DNA from: a virus
Taxonomy: Duplodnaviria > Heunggongvirae > Uroviricota > Caudoviricetes
Length of the DNA stretch: 41,324 bases
IMG/VR virus record: IMGVR_UViG_2671180439_000007
Location: 1 to 41,324 of that record
Strand: one strand, 5' to 3'
Each line of letters opens with the position of its first letter. The stretch's first letter is position 1. Positions 23,743 to 39,956 of this stretch are shown here, piece after piece. The notes under the pieces were generated by a model. That model was not told the DNA's origin. It did no database searches and worked only from the letters and a program-made list of their open reading frames with translations. Position numbers and translations under genes: made by a program.

Positions 23743-24795
23743 TTATTTCCCCACCAGTTCACTTACCTCTTTCACCGTCTGATTAAACCGCTCTGACTCA
23801 AGTTCAACACCTAACGCCCGACGCCCCAGCGCCATTGCCGCTTTTATTGTGGAACCGGATCCCATAAAAAAATCAGCAACCAGATCACCGGGTCGACTAC
23901 TGGCATTGATTATTTGCCTGAGCATATCCGCCGGTTTCTCACACGGATGTTTACCCGGGTAGAACTGAACGGGTTTATGCATCCAGACATCGGTATAAGG
24001 CACGGAGACTGATACGGAGAAATAGCGCCGGAGAGATTTAAACTCATCCAGCAATTCAGAATATTTGCGATTCAGTGAATCATAAGATGCCACCAGCTGG
24101 TGGTGTGGTTGTTCCAGTTGTTGTTCCTGAAACTTCTCTGCCGCTATACGGGAAAACAGTGCCTGTAACTTCCGATAGTCAGCCTCATTCGGCAACTGCC
24201 ACTGACTGGCACCAAACCAGTGGGAAACCATATTTTTCTTACCTGTGGCTTCGGCAATTTGTTTTGCCGTTATACCCAGTTCGGCACGAGCATCCCTGAA
24301 ATACGATATCAGCGGTGCCATTATGTGCTGTTTGAGTTCCCTTTCTTTTGCCGCATAGCCGTCACTTTTGCCGCGATATGGCCCCTGGTAATGTTCAGCA
24401 AACAGAACGCGCTCTGTGGCAGGAAAATATGCGCGCAGACTTTCTTTATTACACCCATTCCAACGTCCGGACGGCTTCGCCCAGATGATATGGTTAAGCA
24501 CGTTGAAACGTTCACGCATCATGATCTCAATATCAGATGCCAGGCGATGCCCACAGAACAGGTAAAGGCTTCCGGCAGGTTTCAACACCCGCCAGAACTG
24601 GGCCAGACAGTGGTCCAGCCACTTAAGGTAATCTTCGTCCCCTTTCCACTGATTGTCCCAACCGTTGGGTTTCACCTTGAAGTAAGGCGGATCGGTAACA
24701 ATCAGGTCAATGGAATCATCAGGCAGGGACTGAATAAAATGCAGGCAATCAGCGTTGATTAAATCAATACTGTTTATTTTTACAGTGTTTTTCAT
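23743..24795 (-). CDS. DNA methyltransferase, beta-class amino-MTase (N6-adenine or N4-cytosine)
   Basis: 350 aa; DPPY motif (LIVTDPPYF) precedes C-terminal SAM motif FFMGSGST. Confidence 0.8.
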   Translation of the reverse strand: MKNTVKINSIDLINADCLHFIQSLPDDSIDLIVTDPPYFKVKPNGWDNQWKGDEDYLKWLDHCLAQFWRVLKPAGSLYLFCGHRLASDIEIMMRERFNVLNHIIWAKPSGRWNGCNKESLRAYFPATERVLFAEHYQGPYRGKSDGYAAKERELKQHIMAPLISYFRDARAELGITAKQIAEATGKKNMVSHWFGASQWQLPNEADYRKLQALFSRIAAEKFQEQQLEQPHHQLVASYDSLNRKYSELLDEFKSLRRYFSVSVSVPYTDVWMHKPVQFYPGKHPCEKPADMLRQIINASSRPGDLVADFFMGSGSTIKAAMALGRRALGVELESERFNQTVKEVSELVGK

Positions 24796-24944
24796 GGATC
24801 AGTAAGCGTAACTCTGGTAGGCTCACTCTGCTTTTGCGCTAAAGCAGTGGGCCGTGGTTCGCTTGTGACCAGTAAGCATGAGCGAATGGCTGGCAGGTGC
24901 TACCAACACCCACCAGCCGCCCATTTTCACAAATTAAAAGTCCT

Positions 24945-31226: not shown

Positions 31227-31909
31227 GCCGCCATCTCCCTGACCAGTTTTTCCGCCTGCTGGCGAACCTGCGCCAGAAAGGCCTCACCACATGCCTCAAG
31301 TTCATCGCGCCCGATGTAGCTGATTGCCGGTCCCTTCCAGGTCTTGTCGAAAACAGCAATAGCACCAGCGAAGAAAGCGCCTGTCGGCACCTGCTTCTCA
31401 TCCTTCGGGATAAACCAGGCAGGCAGTTCAAAACCAATACGCCCGCGAATAAAAGCAATATGATCTGCATCTTCCGGCCACCACACTTCGCTGGTGGCAG
31501 CTTTGATCAGGAAAACATAGCGACCGCCTTTATCACGCATGGCACTGGCATGCTTCATGATGTAACGCATGCCGGTGATGTATTGCCCCTCATGCTGACT
31601 GGCGCGGCTGTATGGGGGATTACCAAAGGCAGCACCTTTAAGCTCCGCAAGACGTTCTGACCAGTCATGTGCCAGCGCGTTGTCTTCCGCCGTGTAATAC
31701 GCGGCACATTTGGCGTTATCACCGTCAGTGAACAGATCCAGAACAAACGGACCAAACAGGGTGTTAATTCCCCAGAAAATGTTATCCGGCGTGCGCCACT
31801 GATCGCCCACTTCCTTCAGTTCATGGGCTGGTTTGTTCCGCAGCTCCACCAGCGCCCGGCAATATTTATTACTCATTAAGCCCCCACGTAATTCCCTGAC
31901 AGATACCAC
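31223..31909 (-). CDS. Phage N6-adenine DNA methyltransferase (Dam-like)
   Basis: 228 aa; WRTPDNIF and FGNPPYS motifs. Confidence 0.8.
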   Translation of the reverse strand: MVSVRELRGGLMSNKYCRALVELRNKPAHELKEVGDQWRTPDNIFWGINTLFGPFVLDLFTDGDNAKCAAYYTAEDNALAHDWSERLAELKGAAFGNPPYSRASQHEGQYITGMRYIMKHASAMRDKGGRYVFLIKAATSEVWWPEDADHIAFIRGRIGFELPAWFIPKDEKQVPTGAFFAGAIAVFDKTWKGPAISYIGRDELEACGEAFLAQVRQQAEKLVREMAA

Positions 31910-32370
31910 TCTTCACCTGATGCAGCCCGCTTGTTGCTTTTCCGTAAACACCGTTCACGACGCGCCAGAAAATTATTTCGTTCTGGCTGGGAGTGGCTTT
32001 CACGGAATGCCGCCATCCACACCGTTGCAGCACGACGGTATAAGCCCCTGGACTCCAGTTCTTCCGCCTGGCGGGTCAGGCACAAAATCACCCGCGGGTC
32101 GTTAGTGCCGACATAGAAATTGCGCACAGGTCTGGTTTCACGAACTGGTTGTGGTTCCGGCTCCTGCGCTCTCTCAGTCAGGCGCGGGAAATGTCTGCGT
32201 GTATCTCCTTCACAACGGTGAGCCACACGCCCACTCTGACGTAACTTGCTTGCTGACTGCAGAACGCGCTGCCGTGAGTAACCTGCAAAAGCATCCGCAA
32301 TGTCTCCGGAAGTACACCCCGGATGGGCTTCAATGAATTTCTGAACGTCATTCAAAAGACTCATGCTCAC
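31876..32370 (-). CDS. Hypothetical early-region protein (possible PerC-like segment)
   Basis: 164 aa; overlaps flanking genes; segment LESRGLYRRAATVWMAA loosely resembles PerC-type regulators. Confidence 0.35.
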   Translation of the reverse strand: MSMSLLNDVQKFIEAHPGCTSGDIADAFAGYSRQRVLQSASKLRQSGRVAHRCEGDTRRHFPRLTERAQEPEPQPVRETRPVRNFYVGTNDPRVILCLTRQAEELESRGLYRRAATVWMAAFRESHSQPERNNFLARRERCLRKSNKRAASGEEWYLSGNYVGA

Positions 32371-33656: not shown

Positions 33657-34216
33657 GCGTTAGTTTCTCCACAGTCACGACACGCCACGGCGCCCGGAGC
33701 TGCACACTCGCGGGCGTCATTACTTTCTGAAATGCAAAAAATTTTGTAGACCAGTGCTGCATGCTCCTGCAGCTTCGAAATTGAGAGGTACAGCTCGTCG
33801 TTAATTGCTGTCTTCTCATTCGGTTCCACTACACCGTCTTCAATTGCTGAACGAATCTGTTTTGAATAACTGCCGATCTGTTCAATGACTTCCAGCAGGC
33901 GCTGGTTTATATCGGCGTTCTCTACTTCCTCAATTTCAGGAAGCGATACGAACACCCCACCAGCAGACTGTGCGACAGCATCCGCAATGTAGTGAGTGCC
34001 AGCCGCGCGCTGTAAAACCATTGCCCATCCCAGCGGGAAAATCTGATCGCCATAGGCACGAAGGCGGTTAAATAATGCGTTCTCTGTTACATCCAGCCAG
34101 TCAGCTGCTTCAGCGTAACCACCCGGCAACGCTGCGATAGTTTTTCTGACAGCTTTCACGTACCACTCAGGCTGTTTTTCTACTTTCCAGTGATACTTAC
34201 CCACGGTTAGCCTCAT
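33653..34216 (-). CDS. CII-like phage regulatory protein (CP76-type family)
   Basis: 187 aa; position immediately after cro; family assignment from recollection only. Confidence 0.5.
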
Positions 34217-34247
34217 CGTTCTGTGGTTAAAAATTGAAGGTGTTCTG

Positions 34248-34448
34248 TTAATCTTTCGGATAGATATCCGGTCTTAAGTCAGATTTCGTAATTGCACCTG
34301 ACGTGCATTGCTCAAGTTTTTTAGCCAGCACAAAACTGGCTTTTTTATAACCATTGAAAACCAGCCGTAAGTAGCCAGGTGTTGAGCCAACTTTTCCGGC
34401 CAACTCGCCCTGCTGTTCTTTGGTTAAAGAGTCCCAATACGCTTTCAT
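34248..34448 (-). CDS. Cro-like repressor
   Basis: 66 aa from ATG 34448 with GGAGG SD; HTH-like; divergent from repressor gene across a 90-bp operator region. Confidence 0.6.
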   Translation of the reverse strand: MKAYWDSLTKEQQGELAGKVGSTPGYLRLVFNGYKKASFVLAKKLEQCTSGAITKSDLRPDIYPKD

Positions 34449-34453
34449 ACAAT

Positions 34454-34522
34454 ATGTACCTCCGGTATACATATTACATGATTGAAATGAACCTTCAAGA
34501 TACTTGTACCTTATCGGTACAA
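34454..34522. promoter_or_regulatory. Right operator region: two 19-bp ATGTA-N9-TACAT-type palindromes
   Basis: ATGTACCTCCGGTATACAT (34454-34472) and TTGTACCTTATCGGTACAA (34504-34522) between cro and repressor starts. Confidence 0.55.
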
Positions 34523-34538
34523 AGGTTTTAATTTCGTT

Positions 34539-35213
34539 ATGAAAACAATCCATGACATCCGGCGGTCTAACGCCAGAAAACTGAGAGATGGTGTTGGCGG
34601 AAATTCATCCTTTGCCACCATGATTGATCGCGAGCCAACCCAAACCAGCAGGTTTATGGGGGATGGCGCTACTAAAAATATCGGTGACAGCATGGCACGG
34701 CACATCGAAAAATGTTTCGACCTGCCTGTCGGATGGCTTGATCAAGAACACCAGACAACGAACATCACAAAAAAACCTGATGTTTCAATCACTAACAAAC
34801 AAATAACGTTAGTCCCTGTCATATCATGGGTACAGGCCGGAGCATGGAAAGAAGTTGGCTATTCTGAGGTTGATTTGAGCACAGCAGAAACGTATCCCTG
34901 CCCTGTACCCTGTGGCGAAATGACTTATATCTTGCGGGTGATTGGTGATTCAATGATTGATGAGTACCGCCCTGGAGACATGATTTTTGTTGATCCCGAA
35001 GTCCCTGCCTGCCACGGTGACGACGTTATTGCATTGATGCACGATACAGGCGAAACCACCTTCAAGCGATTGATAGAAGATGGAACACAGCGTTATCTCA
35101 AAGCATTAAACCCAAACTGGCCTGAGCCTTACATTAAGATTAACGGTAATTGCTCTATAATTGGTACAGTGATTTTCTCGGGAAAACCAAGAAGATACAC
35201 AATAAAGGCCTAA
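34539..35213 (+). CDS. Prophage repressor, P22 C2 / lambda cI-like with S24 peptidase domain
   Basis: 224 aa; C-terminal VIGDSM...GDMIFVDPEV...KALNPNWPEPYIKINGNCSIIG closely parallels P22 C2 as recalled. Confidence 0.85.
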   Translation: MKTIHDIRRSNARKLRDGVGGNSSFATMIDREPTQTSRFMGDGATKNIGDSMARHIEKCFDLPVGWLDQEHQTTNITKKPDVSITNKQITLVPVISWVQAGAWKEVGYSEVDLSTAETYPCPVPCGEMTYILRVIGDSMIDEYRPGDMIFVDPEVPACHGDDVIALMHDTGETTFKRLIEDGTQRYLKALNPNWPEPYIKINGNCSIIGTVIFSGKPRRYTIKA

Positions 35214-35225
35214 TCAATATTTATG

Positions 35226-35248
35226 AACCTGCTTCGGCAGGTTTTTTT
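35226..35248 (+). terminator. Intrinsic terminator after repressor gene
   Basis: AACCTGC-TTCG-GCAGGTT followed by TTTTTTT. Confidence 0.55.
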
Positions 35249-35252
35249 ATAC

Positions 35253-35280
35253 TTGACAATGTACCCATGAGATACATAAT
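35253..35280 (+). promoter_or_regulatory. pL-like promoter with operator in its spacer
   Basis: TTGACA 16-nt spacer CATAAT; third operator copy ATGTACCCATGAGATACAT (35259-35277) inside. Confidence 0.5.
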
Positions 35281-35901
35281 GTATCTAAAAGAAACATAAC
35301 ACAGGCAAGATTAAAACAAAATTTGGTTGTAACACGGCGTATGGCACATGCGTCGTTAGCGGTCTGGTGACGTTAAAGGGGACAATCCACTCCTTGCTCG
35401 AGCAAACAAACCAGGTAGCCGGAATGTGCAAGTCAATGATGATGCTGATAAGACGCCTAACCAGCGTGGCGATTCGGTTTGACGCCTGGGAAGAGACCAG
35501 GGTGCAACGATGAGGGCATTTATGGAGCCGCGACAAAGTGTGGTGCCGTAACTGGCTAAGTGCTCTCAGCGTTGTGGTGAATGCGCAGACTGATGCGCGA
35601 AAGACATTGCAGCTATTGCGGAAAAGAGCTGTTCGGCGGGGCAATTAAACGCCCGTGAGAGTCTGAAATAACCGCAAGCCGGAGATCAGCACCGGTCACC
35701 ACAACAGCCACTGCTTTGGCGGTACCAGTTTGTACACTTGCTTCCGGCTGGTACCGCTCTTTTTACAAAACAGAGAAGAGCATCACCGGACGACGGGCTC
35801 ATAACCCAATCCATCCGGGCGGCTGCCACCGCAGGTGTTCTTCTCTGTTTTGTGGAGAAACTAACCGACCTTGCAGGGTCGATATGATGAGGAGCAGCAA
35901 A

Positions 35902-36264
35902 ATGGCTAGCGAACGCAGTACTGATGTGCAGGCATTTATCGGGGAGCTGGACGGCGGCGTATTTGAAACCAAAATCGGCGCAGTTCTCAGTGAAGTCGCT
36001 TCCGGTGTGATGAACACGAAAACCAAAGGTAAGGTCTCGCTCAACCTGGAAATCGAACCATTTGATGAGAACCGTGTGAAAATCAAACACAAACTCTCAT
36101 ATGTTCGCCCGACTAACCGCGGGAAAATTTCCGAAGAAGACACCACCGAAACACCGATGTATGTCAATCGCGGTGGTCGCCTGACTATTCTGCAGGAAGA
36201 CCAGGGACAATTACTGACTCTTGCCGGTGAACCTGACGGAAAACTCCGCGCAGCAGGTCATTAA
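35902..36264 (+). CDS. Hypothetical protein (YfdP-like)
   Basis: Start set at ATG 35902 with GAGGAG SD; first gene of the leftward operon. Confidence 0.45.
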   Translation: MASERSTDVQAFIGELDGGVFETKIGAVLSEVASGVMNTKTKGKVSLNLEIEPFDENRVKIKHKLSYVRPTNRGKISEEDTTETPMYVNRGGRLTILQEDQGQLLTLAGEPDGKLRAAGH

Positions 36265-36329
36265 TATCGTTCTTAATTAACTGATTATTTATCTCATCAC
36301 TGAATATCTTTATATAGTGAGGACTTATT

Positions 36330-37154
36330 ATGTCTCAGAACTTAGACGCAACCGAAATTAATCAAATCCATGCCCTTATTTCTGCTCAGGGTGTTAATGA
36401 AATTATCAGTAAGATTGGTGCCGATGCTGTGGCATTGCCTGAGAATTTCCGCATTCATGATCTGGAAAAATTTAATTTAAATCGCTTCCGTTTCCGTGGT
36501 GCGCTTTCCACTGCCAGCATCGATGACTTTACCCGTTATTCTAAAGATCTTGCAGATGAAGGCACCCGCTGCTTTATCGATGCTGATAATATGCGAGCCG
36601 TCAGTGTGCTTAACCTGGGTACTATTGATGAACCAGGTCACGCAGATAACACCGCCACTCTCAAACTGAAAAAGACAGCACCGTTCTCTGCCCTGTTGTC
36701 TGTTAACGGCGAGCGTAACTCCCAGAAGTCACTGGCAGAATGGATTGAAGACTGGGCCGACTACCTTGTGGGCTTTGATGCTAATGGTGACGCCATTCAG
36801 GCAACAAAAGCGGCTGCGGCGGTCCGTAAAATCACGATTGAAGCAAACCAGACCGCTGATTTTGAAGACAATGACTTCAGCGGCAAACGCTCTCTGATGG
36901 AGTCTGTCGAAGCGAAAACTAAAGACATTATGCCAGTAGCATTTGAGTTTAAATGCGTTCCGTTTGAAGGCCTGAAAGAACGTCCGTTTAAATTACGCCT
37001 CAGCATTATCACTGGTGATCGCCCTGTACTGGTTCTGCGCATTATTCAGCTGGAAGCAGTACAGGAAGAAATGGCTAACGAATTTCGTAATCTGCTTGTT
37101 GAAAAATTCAAAGACAGCAAAGTAGAAACCTTTATTGGTACTTTCACCGCCTGA
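36330..37154 (+). CDS. YfdQ-like protein (DUF2303)
   Basis: 274 aa; sequence pattern as recalled for CPS-53-type YfdQ. Confidence 0.55.
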
Positions 37155-37166
37155 TTTCATTACTGC

Positions 37167-37188
37167 AAATGCCCCTGCGGGGGCATTT
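37167..37188. terminator. Perfect hairpin after yfdQ-like gene
   Basis: AAATGCCCC-TGCG-GGGGCATTT; weak T-tract. Confidence 0.35.
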
Positions 37189-37281
37189 ATAGAAACGTAA
37201 TTAACTCAATAATCGCCTGATGGCGAGGGTTTTCTTTAACCAAAATTCAGCGCGGTGCAGCGCATATACGTGGAGAACAAA

Positions 37282-37818
37282 ATGTCATTTATTAAAACTT
37301 TTTCCGGGAAGCATTTTTATTATGACAGGATAAATAAAGACGACATCGATATTAACGATATCGCGGTTTCCCTTTCAAATATCTGTCGCTTTGCCGGTCA
37401 TCTTTCGCACTTCTACAGCGTCGCCCAACATGCGGTTCTTTGCAGCCAGTTGGTGCCGCAGGAATTTGCTTTTGAAGCGTTAATGCATGATGCAACAGAA
37501 GCGTATTGCCAGGACATTCCCGCACCACTGAAACGCCTTCTTCCTGACTATAAACAAATGGAAGAAAAAATAGACGCCGTAATCCGTGAGAAATACGGGT
37601 TACCCCCAGTTATGAGTACGCCCGTGAAATATGCCGATCTCATCATGCTGGCAACCGAACGCCGCGATCTCGGGCTTGATGATGGCTCTTTCTGGCCTGT
37701 ACTGGAAGGTATCCCGGCAACAGAGATGTTCAACGTGATTCCACTGGCACCGGGCCATGCCTACGGGATGTTTATGGAACGCTTTAACGAGTTATCGGAG
37801 TTACGCAAATGCGCATGA
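37282..37818 (+). CDS. HD-domain protein (YfdR-like phosphohydrolase)
   Basis: Start set at MSFIKTF; HD motif region AQHAVLCS...MHDATEAY. Confidence 0.6.
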   Translation: MSFIKTFSGKHFYYDRINKDDIDINDIAVSLSNICRFAGHLSHFYSVAQHAVLCSQLVPQEFAFEALMHDATEAYCQDIPAPLKRLLPDYKQMEEKIDAVIREKYGLPPVMSTPVKYADLIMLATERRDLGLDDGSFWPVLEGIPATEMFNVIPLAPGHAYGMFMERFNELSELRKCA

Positions 37819-38171
37819 ATGTTTTCGAAATGGAAGGGTTTCTTCGTGGGAGATGTGTACCGCGAGATCTGAAAGTAAATGAAACAGATGCTGAATACCT
37901 GGTGCGTAAATTCGATGCGCTTGAAGCTAAATGTGCAGCACAGGAAAACAAAGTAATACCAGTGTCAACTGAACTGCCACCAGCAAATGAAAGTGTTTTG
38001 TTATTCGATGCTAACGGAGAAGGCTGGCTAATTGGTTGGCGTTCTCTCTGGTACACCTGGGGACAAAAAGAAACCGGAGAATGGCAGTGGACATTTCAGG
38101 TTGGGGACCTTGAAAACGTCAATATCACTCACTGGGCAGTAATGCCAAAAGCACCGGAGGCTGGAGCATAA
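37809..38171 (+). CDS. DUF551-like protein
   Basis: 120 aa; LFDANGEGWLIGW segment typical of DUF551. Confidence 0.5.
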   Translation: MRMNVFEMEGFLRGRCVPRDLKVNETDAEYLVRKFDALEAKCAAQENKVIPVSTELPPANESVLLFDANGEGWLIGWRSLWYTWGQKETGEWQWTFQVGDLENVNITHWAVMPKAPEAGA

Positions 38172-38476
38172 TGACCACTTTTACCGACAAAGAACTGATT
38201 AAAGAAATTAAAGAGCGTATCAGCAGCCTTGACGTGCGAGACGATATTGAGCGCCGTGCTTATGAAATCGCACTCCTATCTCTGGAAGTAGAACCAGATG
38301 AACGCGAAGCTTATGAATTATTCATGGAAAAGCGTTTCGGTGACTTAGTAGATCGTCGGAGAGCAAAAAACGGCGATAACGAATACATGGCATGGGATAT
38401 GACTCTCGGTTGGATCGTCTGGCAGCAACGAGCTGGTATCCATTTTTCAACAATGTCACAGCAAGAGGTGAAATAA
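38171..38476 (+). CDS. Hypothetical protein
   Basis: 101 aa; start overlaps previous stop. Confidence 0.4.
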   Translation: MTTFTDKELIKEIKERISSLDVRDDIERRAYEIALLSLEVEPDEREAYELFMEKRFGDLVDRRRAKNGDNEYMAWDMTLGWIVWQQRAGIHFSTMSQQEVK

Positions 38477-38826
38477 TGGAGCCATACAGCCTCACACTCG
38501 ATGAGGCCTGTCATTTTCTCAAGATATCCAGACCGACTGCCATTAACTGGATACGCACAGGGCGTCTTCAGGCAACACGCAAAGATCCCACTAAGAATAA
38601 ATCTCCTTACCTCACAACACGACAAGCCTGCATTGCGGCTCTTCAGTCTCCGCTGCATACTGTCCAGGTGAGCGCGGGTGATGGCATAACAGAGGAAAGA
38701 AAATGTCACTCTTCCGCAGAGGTGAAATATGGTACGCCAGTTTCACATTGCCGAACGGTAAAAGATTTAAACAGTCTCTTGGAACAAAGGACAAAAGGCA
38801 GGCGACAGAACTCCATGACAAGCTAA
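38476..38826 (+). CDS. xis: Excisionase
   Basis: 116 aa; [29 protein letters not shown]; overlaps integrase start as in P22-type modules. Confidence 0.65.
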
Positions 38827-39866
38827 AGGCTGAAGCATGGCGGGTCAGCAAACTTGGTGAAATACCTGATATAACGTTCGAGGAAGCGTGTGTCAGGTGG
38901 CTTGAAGAGAAAGCACATAAAAAATCACTGGACGATGACAAAAGCCGGATCGGATTCTGGCTTCAACATTTCGCAGGAATGCAACTAAGAGACATTACTG
39001 AATCAAAAATTTATTCAGCAATGCAGAAAATGACGAACCGGCGTCATGAGGAAAACTGGAGACTCAGGGCAGAAGCATGCAGAAAAAAAGGGAAACCTGT
39101 TCCAGAATACACGCCAAAACCAGCGTCCGTTGCAACGAAGGCTACGCATCTTTCATTTATAAAGGCCCTACTAAGAGCCGCAGAGCGTGAATGGAAAATG
39201 CTGGATAAGGCACCAATTATTAAAGTGCCTCAACCAAAGAATAAACGGATCCGCTGGCTGGAGCCCCATGAAGCACAAAGGCTGATTGATGAATGTCCGG
39301 AGCCATTAAAGTCTGTTGTTGAATTTGCACTGGCAACAGGCTTAAGACGCTCGAACATCATCAACCTTGAATGGCAACAAATAGACATGCAGCGCCGGGT
39401 GGCATGGATAAACCCGGAAGAGAGTAAATCAAACCGCGCAATTGGCGTTGCGCTGAATGATACTGCATGTCGCGTTTTGAAAAAACAAATCGGGAATCAT
39501 CACCGTTGGGTATTTGTGTACAAGGAAAGCTGTACCAAACCAGACGGAACGAAAGCGCCAACAGTAAGGAAGATGCGGTATGACGCAAACACAGCCTGGA
39601 AAGCGGCGCTGAGACGGGCTGGTATTGATGATTTCAGATTTCACGACTTGAGACACACCTGGGCAAGTTGGCTGGTTCAAGCCGGAGTCCCGTTGTCAGT
39701 GTTACAGGAAATGGGAGGCTGGGAGTCTATCGAAATGGTTCGTCGATATGCTCACCTTGCACCTAATCACCTTACCGAACACGCACGGCAAATAGACTCG
39801 ATCCTGAACCCATCGGTCCCAAATTTGTCCCAGTCAAAAAATAAGGAAGGTACTAATGATGTGTAA
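38703..39866 (+). CDS. int: Tyrosine integrase, P22 Int family
   Basis: 387 aa; N-terminus [46 protein letters not shown] matches recalled P22 Int; C-terminal [10 protein letters not shown]...RYAHL catalytic region; ends 15 bp from tRNA 3' end. Confidence 0.9.
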
Positions 39867-39880
39867 CTTATTGATTTTAA

Positions 39881-39956
39881 TGGTGCCGATAATAGGAGTC
39901 GAACCTACGACCTTCGCATTACGAATGCGCTGCTCTACCAACTGAGCTATATCGGC
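39881..39956 (-). tRNA. thrW: tRNA-Thr (CGU anticodon)
   Basis: Reverse complement reads GCCGATATAGCTCAGTTGGTAGAGCAGCGCATTCGTAATGCGAAGGTCGTAGGTTCGACTCCTATTATCGGCACCA; cloverleaf with CGT anticodon and CCA end. Confidence 0.9.

Follow-up and report, generated by a model that had tools for sequence, protein, structure and literature searches.

Predicted repressor operators in the immunity region of an e14/SfV-type lambdoid prophage

The window analysed here, a stretch of 41,324 bases, contains two clusters of related 19-bp palindromes which, judged from the sequence, are almost certainly operators for a lambda-like repressor and its Cro partner, switching the early promoters. The surrounding DNA would thus, with high probability, represent the immunity (lysis/lysogeny switch) region of a lambdoid prophage of the e14/SfV type, whose repressor presumably binds the 19-bp palindromes as a dimer. 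As a control region it is ordinary, and public records of the E. coli prophage e14 and the Shigella phage SfV already annotate such a region. The prophage is integrated at tRNA-Thr, adjoining proA.

Results

The original prediction had proposed three copies of an operator with the sequence ATGTA-N9-TACAT, two of them in the divergent region between cro and the repressor gene and a third inside the promoter TTGACA-16-CATAAT just past the repressor terminator. All three sites were located where they had been placed, S1 and S2 in the gap of 90 bp which separates the cro start (34448, minus strand) from the repressor ATG (34539), and S3 within the promoter (Table 1). The motif as worded, however, is exact for S1 and S3 (two matches in the window versus none in 100 shuffles), whereas S2 reads TTGTA-N9-TACAA, and the real consensus is WTGTAYC-N5-GRTACAW. 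A motif search of the whole window found the core TGTAC-N7-RTACA only at S1, S2 and S3, against 0.09 occurrences expected. The proposed division into OR and OL is likewise borne out, but the number of candidate sites rises to five. OR comprises three predicted sites (S1, S5 and S2) in the intergenic region, where several related palindromes overlap PR and the maintenance promoter, and OL comprises two (S3 and S4) in the near-consensus promoter directly past the repressor terminator. A third OL operator as in lambda was not found; there is no further matrix match of at least 10 near PL.

Table 1. Coordinates of the genes, predicted operators and transcription signals in the window.
Feature	Coordinates	Strand	Description
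cro-like gene	34248..34448	-	66 aa; ymfT/croE homolog; from the ORF list
S1	34454..34472	.	ATGTACCTCCGGTATACAT; ATGTACC-TCCGG-TATACAT; OR, over the start of the cro transcript
PR (cro), inferred	34471..34498	-	-35 TTGAAG (34498..34493), 16-nt spacer, -10 TAATAT (34476..34471)
S5, candidate weak operator	34487..34505	.	ATGAACCTTCAAGATACTT; ATGAACC-TTCAA-GATACTT; middle of OR
S2	34504..34522	.	TTGTACCTTATCGGTACAA; TTGTACC-TTATC-GGTACAA; OR, adjoining the repressor gene
Maintenance-promoter -10, inferred	34527..34532	+	TTTAAT; transcript start at or near the A of the ATG (34539)
S24-type repressor gene	34539..35213	+	224 aa; e14 YmfK/CohE type
Repressor intrinsic terminator	35225..35251	+	8-bp stem with GC-rich core, then T-run
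PL-equivalent promoter	35253..35280	+	TTGACA (35253-35258), 16-nt spacer, CATAAT (35275-35280); 11/12 consensus matches
S3	35259..35277	.	ATGTACCCATGAGATACAT; ATGTACC-CATGA-GATACAT; OL, in promoter spacer and -10
S4	35279..35297	.	ATGTATCTAAAAGAAACAT; ATGTATC-TAAAA-GAAACAT; OL, over the transcript start
Untranslated leader, PL to yfdP	35298..35901	+	about 600 nt; part of the downstream module, not of the immunity module

S4 and S5 emerged from a palindromic matrix which was built from S1–S3 and scanned over the whole window. Here, S3 reached the top score while S4 ranked fourth and S5 fifth, and these two best matches outside the training set in 41 kb both lie within the two control regions. 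The score of S4 is expected by chance 0.055 times per window; that of S5 is expected 0.55 times and is not significant on score alone, so that the case for S5 is one of conservation and not of score. S2 is perfectly symmetrical and the strongest palindrome of OR. When related loci totalling 508 kb are scanned, almost all matches to the strict motif lie at the positions of S2 and S3.

PR was read from the sequence, with a predicted start near 34464, and agrees with the consensus at 8 of 12 positions, which is under the threshold of the promoter scan; the TTG of its -35 (plus-strand CAA, inside the S5 spacer) and the position of its -10 are kept across genera. S1 begins at the final 2 nt of the PR -10, spans -8 to +11 of this promoter and includes the Shine-Dalgarno sequence of cro (GGAGG, minus strand). 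At PL, with a predicted start near 35287, S3 takes up the whole spacer and reaches three bases into CATAAT, and S4 begins at the final 2 nt of the -10 (-8 to +10), the same geometry as that of S1 at PR. TTGAC and CATAAT are invariant in 21 of 21 aligned sequences, which cover 20 non-E. coli loci, and the terminator hairpin in front of this promoter is kept across genera as well, with compensatory changes from U-A to C-G. Existing records agree with this map: the "putative operator region" of the SfV record maps exactly onto 34454-34522 (S1 to S2), and phage Ayreon (GenBank MF807953) has an annotated promoter corresponding to 35252-35279.

The position of the maintenance promoter is fixed by the published ymfK transcript of e14, since differential RNA-seq found this mRNA to be leaderless (PMC4681348, Fig. 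2E). The OR described here is near-identical to that of e14 and would accordingly share the leaderless repressor mRNA that marks a lambdoid switch. Of the 18 aligned sequences, 16 carry a -10-like hexamer with a terminal TAAT (TAAAT in Limnobaculum) whose end is 6 nt upstream of the ATG, a distance that grows to 7 nt in Pantoea (GAGAAT) and Edwardsiella; a properly spaced Shine-Dalgarno sequence before the repressor ATG was not found in this 18-sequence OR alignment. Relative to the leaderless transcript, S2 spans -35 to -17, and S5, which also covers the PR -35, is centred at -43. Maintenance promoters further upstream, with TTGAAA or TTACAT as -35, were rejected because of their wrong spacing and their conflict with the leaderless transcript.

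The sites leave a clear footprint of conservation at two depths of comparison. Within a population set of 31 OR and 27 OL haplotypes, all with repressors 99-100% identical, none of 50 core half-site positions is polymorphic in at least two haplotypes, compared to 12 of 25 spacer positions (Fisher p = 2e-7) and 26 of all 115 non-core positions (p = 4e-5). Across genera, 21 loci with repressors of 42-88% identity (16 at 74-88%, five at 42-60%) retain positions and half-sites, with scrambled spacers. In the 16 closer loci, S1 keeps a distance of 85 nt (86 in two loci) to the repressor ATG without exception and has invariant half-site cores, and an S3-type site follows the repressor gene at a distance of 50-81 nt, again in 16 of 16. 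For S2, the distance to the ATG is 35 nt (36 in two loci), in the 16 loci and the five distant homologs alike, and only the S2 spacer varies. The half-sites of S3 are invariant in 21 aligned sequences, where the spacer is scrambled. Even at 42-60% repressor identity, the OR arrangement and the GTACC half-site are kept (Providencia, Rosenbergiella, Salinicola, Morganella and Salinivibrio).

The two additional sites are less uniformly kept. In 13 of the 16 closer loci, S5 scores at least 10, at a distance to the ATG of 52 nt (53 in Pantoea), and its left half reads ATGAACC in 17 of 18 aligned sequences and GTGAACC in Trabulsiella. S4 follows S3 by 20 nt with a score of at least 10 in 11 of the 16; its left half is retained in 18 of 21 aligned sequences, and about five of the 16 loci, and about a quarter of the aligned sequences, have a degenerate right half or none. 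An alternative reading is that S1, S2 and S3 alone bind protein and that S4 and S5 are look-alikes, conserved via the promoter elements and the initial transcribed sequence which they overlap. The chance-level score of S5, its overlap with the PR -35 and spacer and the 2 bp which it has in common with S2 fit such a reading, as do the lost or degenerate right half of S4 in several genera and the complete absence of S4 from the three most distant loci of the 21-sequence OL alignment (Providencia, Rosenbergiella and Morganella). We nevertheless consider it unlikely: the best two non-training matches in 41 kb both fall into the control regions, S4 is significant by itself and shows a pattern of seven conserved, five variable and seven conserved positions in near-identical haplotypes, and its position at PL is exactly that of S1 at PR. 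Moreover, the TGAACC of S5, including its off-consensus base, is invariant in 18 of 18 sequences, a constraint not normally seen in a promoter spacer, although the conservation of S5 could partly reflect the overlapped PR -35 and spacer.

Being palindromic, every site can also fold into a hairpin, and a terminator scan in fact flags S2, with a 7-bp stem followed by AGGTTTTAAT. The palindromes might thus act as RNA, i.e., as terminators or attenuators, instead of as DNA sites for a protein. This option has next to no likelihood, as the arms are conserved in sequence and show no compensatory changes in about 40 diverged sequences, unlike the true terminator stem, and the T-run past S2 is not kept in other genera. 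In addition, S3 lies in the promoter spacer and would be untranscribed from that promoter, and S2 lies upstream of the repressor transcript because the repressor mRNA is leaderless.

As binding protein, the repressor encoded between the two clusters is the foremost candidate. It is identical to the e14 YmfK (CohE) of E. coli K-12 in 223 of 224 residues, and the Cro protein to K-12 e14 YmfT in 65 of 66; the latter has a YdaS-family/HTH_3 match under the Pfam cut-off, and PGAP names the gene of a near-identical prophage ymfT. The repressor matches Pfam Peptidase_S24 over residues 93-212 (E = 1.5e-26) and possesses the Ala-Gly site Ala100-Gly101 and the Ser/Lys dyad Ser138 and Lys176. Its best fold match is full-length lambda CI (3bdn), and lambda CI (1f39) is also the closest solved relative of the C-terminal domain. 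The N-terminal domain, for which the model predicts helices at 22-28 and 33-40, behaves differently: residues 1-92 have no Pfam match, HTH_3 included, at E values up to 10, and a sequence relation to the N-terminal domain of lambda CI is not detectable. A PDB-wide sequence search with this domain returned, as repressor matches, SPC32H Rep and TP901-1 CI only, and a homolog search by the N-terminal domain alone gave fragments only. The sole solved relative of this DNA-binding domain is SPC32H Rep (PDB 5D50; phmmer E = 5e-4, residues 1-75), on which it superposes with 73 aligned columns in Foldseek, an rmsd of 2.0 and 38% identity. The earlier description of the repressor as C2-like consequently does not hold, as no likeness to P22 C2 is detectable, the N-terminal domain lacks an HTH_3 match and its nearest relative is SPC32H Rep.

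Sites and repressor vary together. According to the model-based helix assignment, all homologs that keep GTACC sites retain TQxSR in the predicted helix 33-40, whereas L115, L105 and L106, three homologs in which this helix differs, have no GTACC palindromes upstream, but repeats of the TTAGC/GCTAA type (L115 and L105) or of the TAGCG type (L106). Among the distant homologs, the N-terminal domain is better conserved than the C-terminal domain. Conservation, the covariation of operator and reading helix and promoter geometry all back the assignment of the sites to the repressor as its predicted operators.

Another protein, namely host LexA, Cro only, or the CII-like YmfL, whose gene comes after cro, could in principle be the ligand. 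Cro homologs accompany the sites in 20 of 21 loci, which means that Cro and the repressor cannot be told apart as ligands by comparison alone. We regard such a ligand as highly improbable, however. The Morganella locus retains all OR sites, the PL site and a repressor homolog without a cro homolog; the site sequence shifts when helix 33-40 of the repressor shifts; and a site in the promoter immediately past the repressor gene is in the classic position of OL. A lambdoid Cro would be expected to use the sites of the repressor alongside it and not in its place. The LexA box is CTGT-N8-ACAG, and LexA was rejected owing to the wrong spacing, as TGT and ACA are 11 nt apart here versus 8 nt.

Homology with e14 and SfV covers cro, OR, the repressor gene, the terminator, the promoter and S3-S4 and ends at about 35310-35315, from which it follows that the sites travel with the repressor. 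Past PL, e14 has ymfJ through intE adjoining icd, in contrast to the leader, yfdP-yfdT, xis and int adjoining tRNA-Thr in the window. The leader has a predicted folding energy of -227 kcal/mol (z = -6.6) and holds two hairpins, one with a T-run (35719-35764) and one of 25 bp (35765-35853); variation among 30 variants is too small for a covariation test of these hairpins. An Rfam scan of 34000-36400 gave no match above chance. Transcription from the PL-equivalent promoter may extend all the way to int, as the original prediction assumed, but would have to cross this structured 600-nt leader, with its hairpin and T-run, before yfdP.

Discussion

In a lysogen, repressor bound to S1 and to S5, over the PR -35, would block cro, the cII-like gene and the replication genes, and repressor on S3 and S4 would block the transcript from the PL-equivalent promoter, with yfdP to xis/int as its proposed extent. 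Transcription of the repressor gene itself would start at a weak promoter, with S2 lying over its -35, and yield a leaderless mRNA. Such a placement suggests negative autoregulation via S2, which could also serve as Cro target for shutting off repressor synthesis, like OR3 of lambda. S5, placed like OR2 of lambda, could activate the maintenance promoter. In the -10 of this promoter, TTTAAT, the A normally present at position -11 is missing, and the -35 is occupied by S2; both the order of site filling and activation by S5 are for this reason guesses. Upon DNA damage, RecA-dependent cleavage of the repressor at Ala100-Gly101 would derepress both promoters, after which the YmfT-type Cro would bind those operators, too.

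Many features of this switch are shared with lambda, including the divergent repressor and cro genes, a repressor with an HTH N-terminal domain and a self-cleaving S24 C-terminal domain, a tripartite OR, its middle site centred near -43 as is OR2, over PR and a leaderless maintenance promoter, another group of operators in the leftward early promoter past the repressor gene, and a CII-family gene after cro. Several differences are apparent, however. The operators are 19 bp long with a TGTAYC half-site, compared to 17 bp and TATCAC in lambda, and OL has two sites instead of three. At each lytic promoter, one operator lies over the transcription start (-8 to +11) and not between -35 and -10. A distance of 17 bp separates the centres of S5 and S2, versus 23-24 bp in lambda, and the two sites have 2 bp in common, which makes their joint occupancy uncertain. 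Furthermore, no rex genes are present between the repressor gene and PL and no N gene is evident after PL, where the first gene, yfdP, has no Pfam family; the PGAP annotation of a near-identical prophage lists a Q-family antiterminator and no N.

A further reading is that the switch is wired unlike that of lambda: occupancy of S5 and S2 may be mutually exclusive (activation versus repression), and the PL leader may be a cis-acting RNA which gates early-left expression by put-like antitermination or attenuation. We rate this combined proposal as rather improbable. If occupancy of S5 and S2 were mutually exclusive, the autoregulatory logic would be different from that of OR2/OR3 in lambda.

The immunity region of P22 (C2/immC) is similarly organized: its repressor, which likewise ends in an S24 domain, is encoded divergently from cro, and palindromic operators lie at PR/PRM and at PL. 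The P22 operator sequences are presumably unrelated to those described here. SPC32H Rep, too, binds palindromic sites, is tetrameric when bound to DNA and is inactivated by an antirepressor (PMC9638917). It has no S24 domain, whereas the repressor in the window features a cleavable C-terminal domain of the lambda type. By far the closest system is the immunity region of e14 (ymfK/cohE, ymfT/croE, ymfL) and SfV (cI, cro), where the DNA is essentially identical and individual sites differ by few changes, confined to spacers and wobble positions. OR and the stretch of terminator, promoter, S3 and S4 are nearly identical not only in e14 and SfV, but also in Ayreon, 2H10, cdtI, Stx2c phages and 565 complete E. 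coli genomes.

In the accessible literature on ymfK, cohE and croE we found no binding, footprint or reporter data for the repressor or Cro, but only lists and one reporter study. In this massively parallel reporter study, no consistent footprints emerged for the putative YmfT regulon. A cross-talk paper (NAR 2022) deals with Rac/RacR and not with e14.

Conclusion

The discovery value of the sites is small, since the arrangement is that of a textbook lambdoid switch, almost the same DNA is present in e14, SfV and hundreds of E. coli prophages, and the SfV record already labelled the OR stretch a putative operator region. Published binding sites for YmfK/CohE and YmfT/CroE were not found in the literature accessible to us, and what is gained in practice for these two K-12 regulators is a map, to the base pair, of five predicted sites and three promoters, together with a consensus. 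The specificity of the repressor, i.e., the GTACC half-site together with the TQxSR helix, appears from sequence comparison to be common across Enterobacterales and would extend to Halomonadaceae and Vibrionaceae.

Results

All three 19-bp operators of the original prediction lie where it had placed them (S1, S2 and S3), two in the 90-bp gap between the divergent starts of the cro-like gene (34448, minus strand) and the repressor gene (34539, plus strand), and the third filling the 16-nt spacer of a promoter beyond the repressor gene. The proposed form, ATGTA-N9-TACAT, is literal in S1 and S3 (two matches in the window, none in 100 shuffles), whereas S2 reads TTGTA-N9-TACAA. Their six half-sites give the consensus WTGTAYC-N5-GRTACAW, and across the window TGTAC-N7-RTACA is confined to S1–S3, with 0.09 matches expected in 41,324 bases. 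A half-site matrix trained on these sites and used for a palindromic scan of the whole window ranked S3, S2 and S1 on top, followed by S4, which begins one base after S3, and by S5, between S1 and S2; the two best non-training matches in 41 kb both fall within the two control regions. Scores of this height are expected 0.055 (S4) and 0.55 (S5) times per shuffled window, so that S4 is supported by its score and S5 depends on further evidence. The centres of S5 and S2 are 17 bp apart, and the two sites share 2 bp. S2 was also called as a terminator (7-bp stem, then AGGTTTTAAT), a false positive made up of the operator palindrome and the downstream -10 element of the repressor's maintenance promoter.

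Sites, promoter elements and neighbouring features of the control region (window positions)
Feature	Position	Strand	Sequence or description
S1	34454-34472		ATGTACCTCCGGTATACAT
PR -10 (predicted)	34476-34471	minus	TAATAT
S5	34487-34505		ATGAACCTTCAAGATACTT
PR -35 (predicted)	34498-34493	minus	TTGAAG, 16 nt from -10
S2	34504-34522		TTGTACCTTATCGGTACAA
Repressor terminator	35225-35251		hairpin and T-run
PL -35	35253-35258		TTGACA
S3	35259-35277		ATGTACCCATGAGATACAT
PL -10	35275-35280		CATAAT
S4	35279-35297		ATGTATCTAAAAGAAACAT
Leader	35298-35901		about 600 nt before yfdP
Leader hairpin	35719-35764	plus	10-bp, then TCTTTTT
Leader hairpin	35765-35853	plus	25-bp, 84% complementary
int	38703-39866
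tRNA-Thr	39881-39956

PL, described at the outset as near-consensus, agrees with the consensus at 11 of 12 positions and indeed follows the repressor terminator, whose hairpin is kept among homologs via U-A to C-G exchanges; TTGAC and CATAAT are invariant in 21 of 21 aligned sequences. S3 extends three bases into the -10 element and covers about -28 to -10, S4 about -8 to +10. At the predicted PR, S1 takes in the final two bases of the -10 element, a placement identical to that of S4 at PL, and contains the cro Shine-Dalgarno sequence. The PR -35 element is covered by S5, within whose spacer conservation is limited to CAA, i.e., the TTG of this element on the opposite strand.

Ahead of the repressor gene, a hexamer ending in TAAT (TAAAT in Limnobaculum) stops 6 nt before the ATG in 16 of 18 aligned sequences and 7 nt before it in Pantoea (GAGAAT) and Edwardsiella. 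This predicted maintenance -10 element is without the usual A at position -11, and no properly spaced Shine-Dalgarno sequence precedes the ATG. In differential RNA-seq, e14 ymfK is one of only five E. coli mRNAs listed as leaderless (PMC4681348, Fig. 2E). Relative to a repressor transcript with +1 at about 34539, S2 spans -35 to -17, and S5 and S1 are centred at -43 and -76.

Among close relatives, 80 viral contigs (repressor 99–100% identical), together with e14, SfV, Ayreon and E. coli loci, yielded 31 OR and 27 OL haplotypes, and a polymorphism was taken as recurrent if its minor allele occurred in at least two of them. Recurrent variation affected none of 50 core half-site positions, compared to 12 of 25 spacer positions (Fisher p = 2e-7) and 26 of all 115 non-core positions (p = 4e-5). 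A pattern of seven conserved, five variable and seven conserved positions is visible in S1 to S4; in S5 a single spacer position is recurrently variable, and its cores are free of such variation. Amid otherwise ~99% identical sequences, two hypervariable patches abut the outer edges of S5 (34484-34486; GAA, GAG, AAA, GGA, AAG, AAT, AGC or AGT) and S4 (35298-35301; ~10 different tetranucleotides), which could reflect a mutational hotspot or selection on operator flanks.

One genome per species gave 16 further loci with 74–88% identical repressors (Pseudocitrobacter, Atlantibacter, Klebsiella, Leclercia, Phytobacter, Enterobacter, Pantoea, Trabulsiella, Kluyvera, Limnobaculum, Rahnella, Edwardsiella and others). 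S1 lies 85–86 nt and S2 35–36 nt before the repressor ATG in all 16, as does an S3 site 50–81 nt past the gene; S5 (52–53 nt before the ATG) and S4 (20 bp after S3) score at least 10 in 13 and 11 of the 16, respectively, and the site spacers are unrelated from locus to locus. Even homologs of 42–60% identity (Providencia, Rosenbergiella, Salinicola, Morganella, Salinivibrio) keep the S1/S5/S2 arrangement and the GTACC half-site, with TTGAC-[ATGTACC-N5-RRTACAT]-AAT past the repressor gene in three of the five. In 508 kb of related loci, the strict motif is all but confined to the positions of S2 and S3.

In Morganella psychrotolerans (L113, 1-3072; repressor 43% identical), OR-type sites and the PL/S3 promoter are kept, no cro homolog is detectable upstream and a primase-like gene lies ~300 bp away instead; it may be a satellite or degraded element using the same repressor specificity. 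In Salinicola corii (L112, 1940-2662), a Zeta-toxin family gene directly follows the repressor gene, replacing the terminator and the PL/S3 promoter. A 4.2-kb scaffold titled Martelella alba (L103) carries an enterobacterial-type immunity region with all sites and a 74% identical repressor, most likely assembly contamination of a scaffold attributed to an alphaproteobacterium.

The repressor is identical to E. coli K-12 e14 YmfK (CohE) at 223 of 224 residues and the Cro-like protein to YmfT (CroE) at 65 of 66. The latter falls in the YdaS family of helix-turn-helix proteins, with a match below the Pfam cut-off, and the next gene, ymfL, belongs to the Phage_CP76 (CII) family. Repressor residues 93-212 form a Peptidase_S24 domain (E = 1.5e-26) with Ala100-Gly101, Ser138 and Lys176, the closest solved relative of the C-terminal domain being lambda CI (1f39, E = 2e-9). 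Residues 1-92 match no Pfam family even at E = 10, and their sole solved relative is Rep of Salmonella phage SPC32H (5d50, E = 5e-4, residues 1-75). In an AlphaFold model built with 13 homologs (mean pLDDT 77; 81–89 over residues 1-70), helices span residues 4-19, 22-28, 33-40 and 50-59; Foldseek ranks full-length lambda CI (3bdn) first and aligns the N-terminal domain with 5d50 across 73 columns (2.0 A). Owing to these domain and structure matches, the earlier label "C2-like" is apt only loosely, in the sense of a lambdoid repressor. According to the model, helices 22-28 and 33-40 form a helix-turn-helix in which TQTSRFMG is the likely reading helix.

TQxSR is present in helix 33-40 of every homolog that retains GTACC sites. 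Where this helix differs, in three homologs, upstream GTACC palindromes are absent and repeats of another kind occur: TTAGC/GCTAA-type in L115 (SYLSQ), TTAGCC-N3-GGCTAA-type in Comamonas (L105, AQISQ) and TAGCG-type in Variovorax (L106, AQFAN). Conservation in the distant homologs with GTACC sites is higher for the N-terminal than for the C-terminal domain (e.g., 62% vs. 38% in Morganella).

The 1.75 kb around the sites are 98–99% identical to phages 2H10, Ayreon, cdtI and a set of Stx2c phages, the immunity part is 96% identical to SfV and SfIV, and 565 of 5,426 complete E. coli genomes contain the region at ≥80% coverage, with the PGAP gene names ymfK, ymfT, ymfL and yfdP. A near-identical prophage is located at tRNA-Thr, adjoining proA, and continues past the repressor gene with yfdP, yfdQ, yfdR, a phage gene, yfdT, a helix-turn-helix (xis-like) gene and the integrase gene; the window likewise ends with int, tRNA-Thr and proA. 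For the parts of the window at and near ~24630-24923 and ~31550-32370, PGAP annotation of the near-identical prophage L003 shows a DNA methyltransferase, an NYN-domain gene and, adjacent to the lysis cassette, the lipoprotein gene iss (serum survival); the PR operon includes a small second LexA-family protein gene adjoining a PerC-like yfdN gene.

Homology to e14 and SfV spans cro, OR, repressor, terminator, promoter, S3 and S4 and ends at ~35310-35315, and phages with other immunity regions (e.g., mEp460) match only from 35315 onward. As homology breaks here from both sides, the five sites travel with the repressor gene. At this mosaic junction, just past S4, the window continues with the yfdP-type leader; e14, SfV and many other genera (L001, L005, L089-L099) have a different, highly conserved leader starting CAGGCAGGACGCCCACGAAGTAGCC. 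The window's leader is predicted to fold strongly (-227 kcal/mol, z = -6.6 vs. shuffles), is without convincing coding potential or an Rfam match, and is 97–99% conserved in mEp460, PhiR63_1 and an Stx2k phage, whose immunity regions are of other types. In a lambdoid phage that apparently lacks N, it may act as a terminator or as a cis-regulatory RNA. A stock scan found no strong plus-strand terminator in 35281-39866, but given this folded leader with its two hairpins, transcription from PL through to int, as originally proposed, is no more than plausible.

Discussion

The region is of the e14/SfV immunity type and probably works in the manner of the lambda OR/OL switch. Repressor dimers would, in the lysogen, block PR from S1 and S5 and PL from S3 and S4. 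S2 could mediate autorepression of the leaderless repressor promoter and offer Cro a route to shut off repressor synthesis, like lambda OR3, while S5, placed like lambda OR2, might activate the maintenance promoter. RecA-stimulated cleavage at Ala100-Gly101 would then derepress both lytic promoters. In contrast to lambda, the half-site differs, OL comprises two operators rather than three, one operator lies over each lytic start site, and the middle and right OR sites overlap.

This is an ordinary lambdoid control region, already annotated publicly: the "putative operator region" of the SfV GenBank record coincides exactly with 34454-34522, the stretch bounded by the outer ends of S1 and S2, and the Ayreon record has a promoter feature at the equivalent of 35252-35279. 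Since we found no published binding data for YmfK or YmfT in the accessible literature, and a recent massively parallel reporter study obtained no consistent footprints for the putative YmfT regulon, the site-by-site map of predicted operators may nevertheless be useful.
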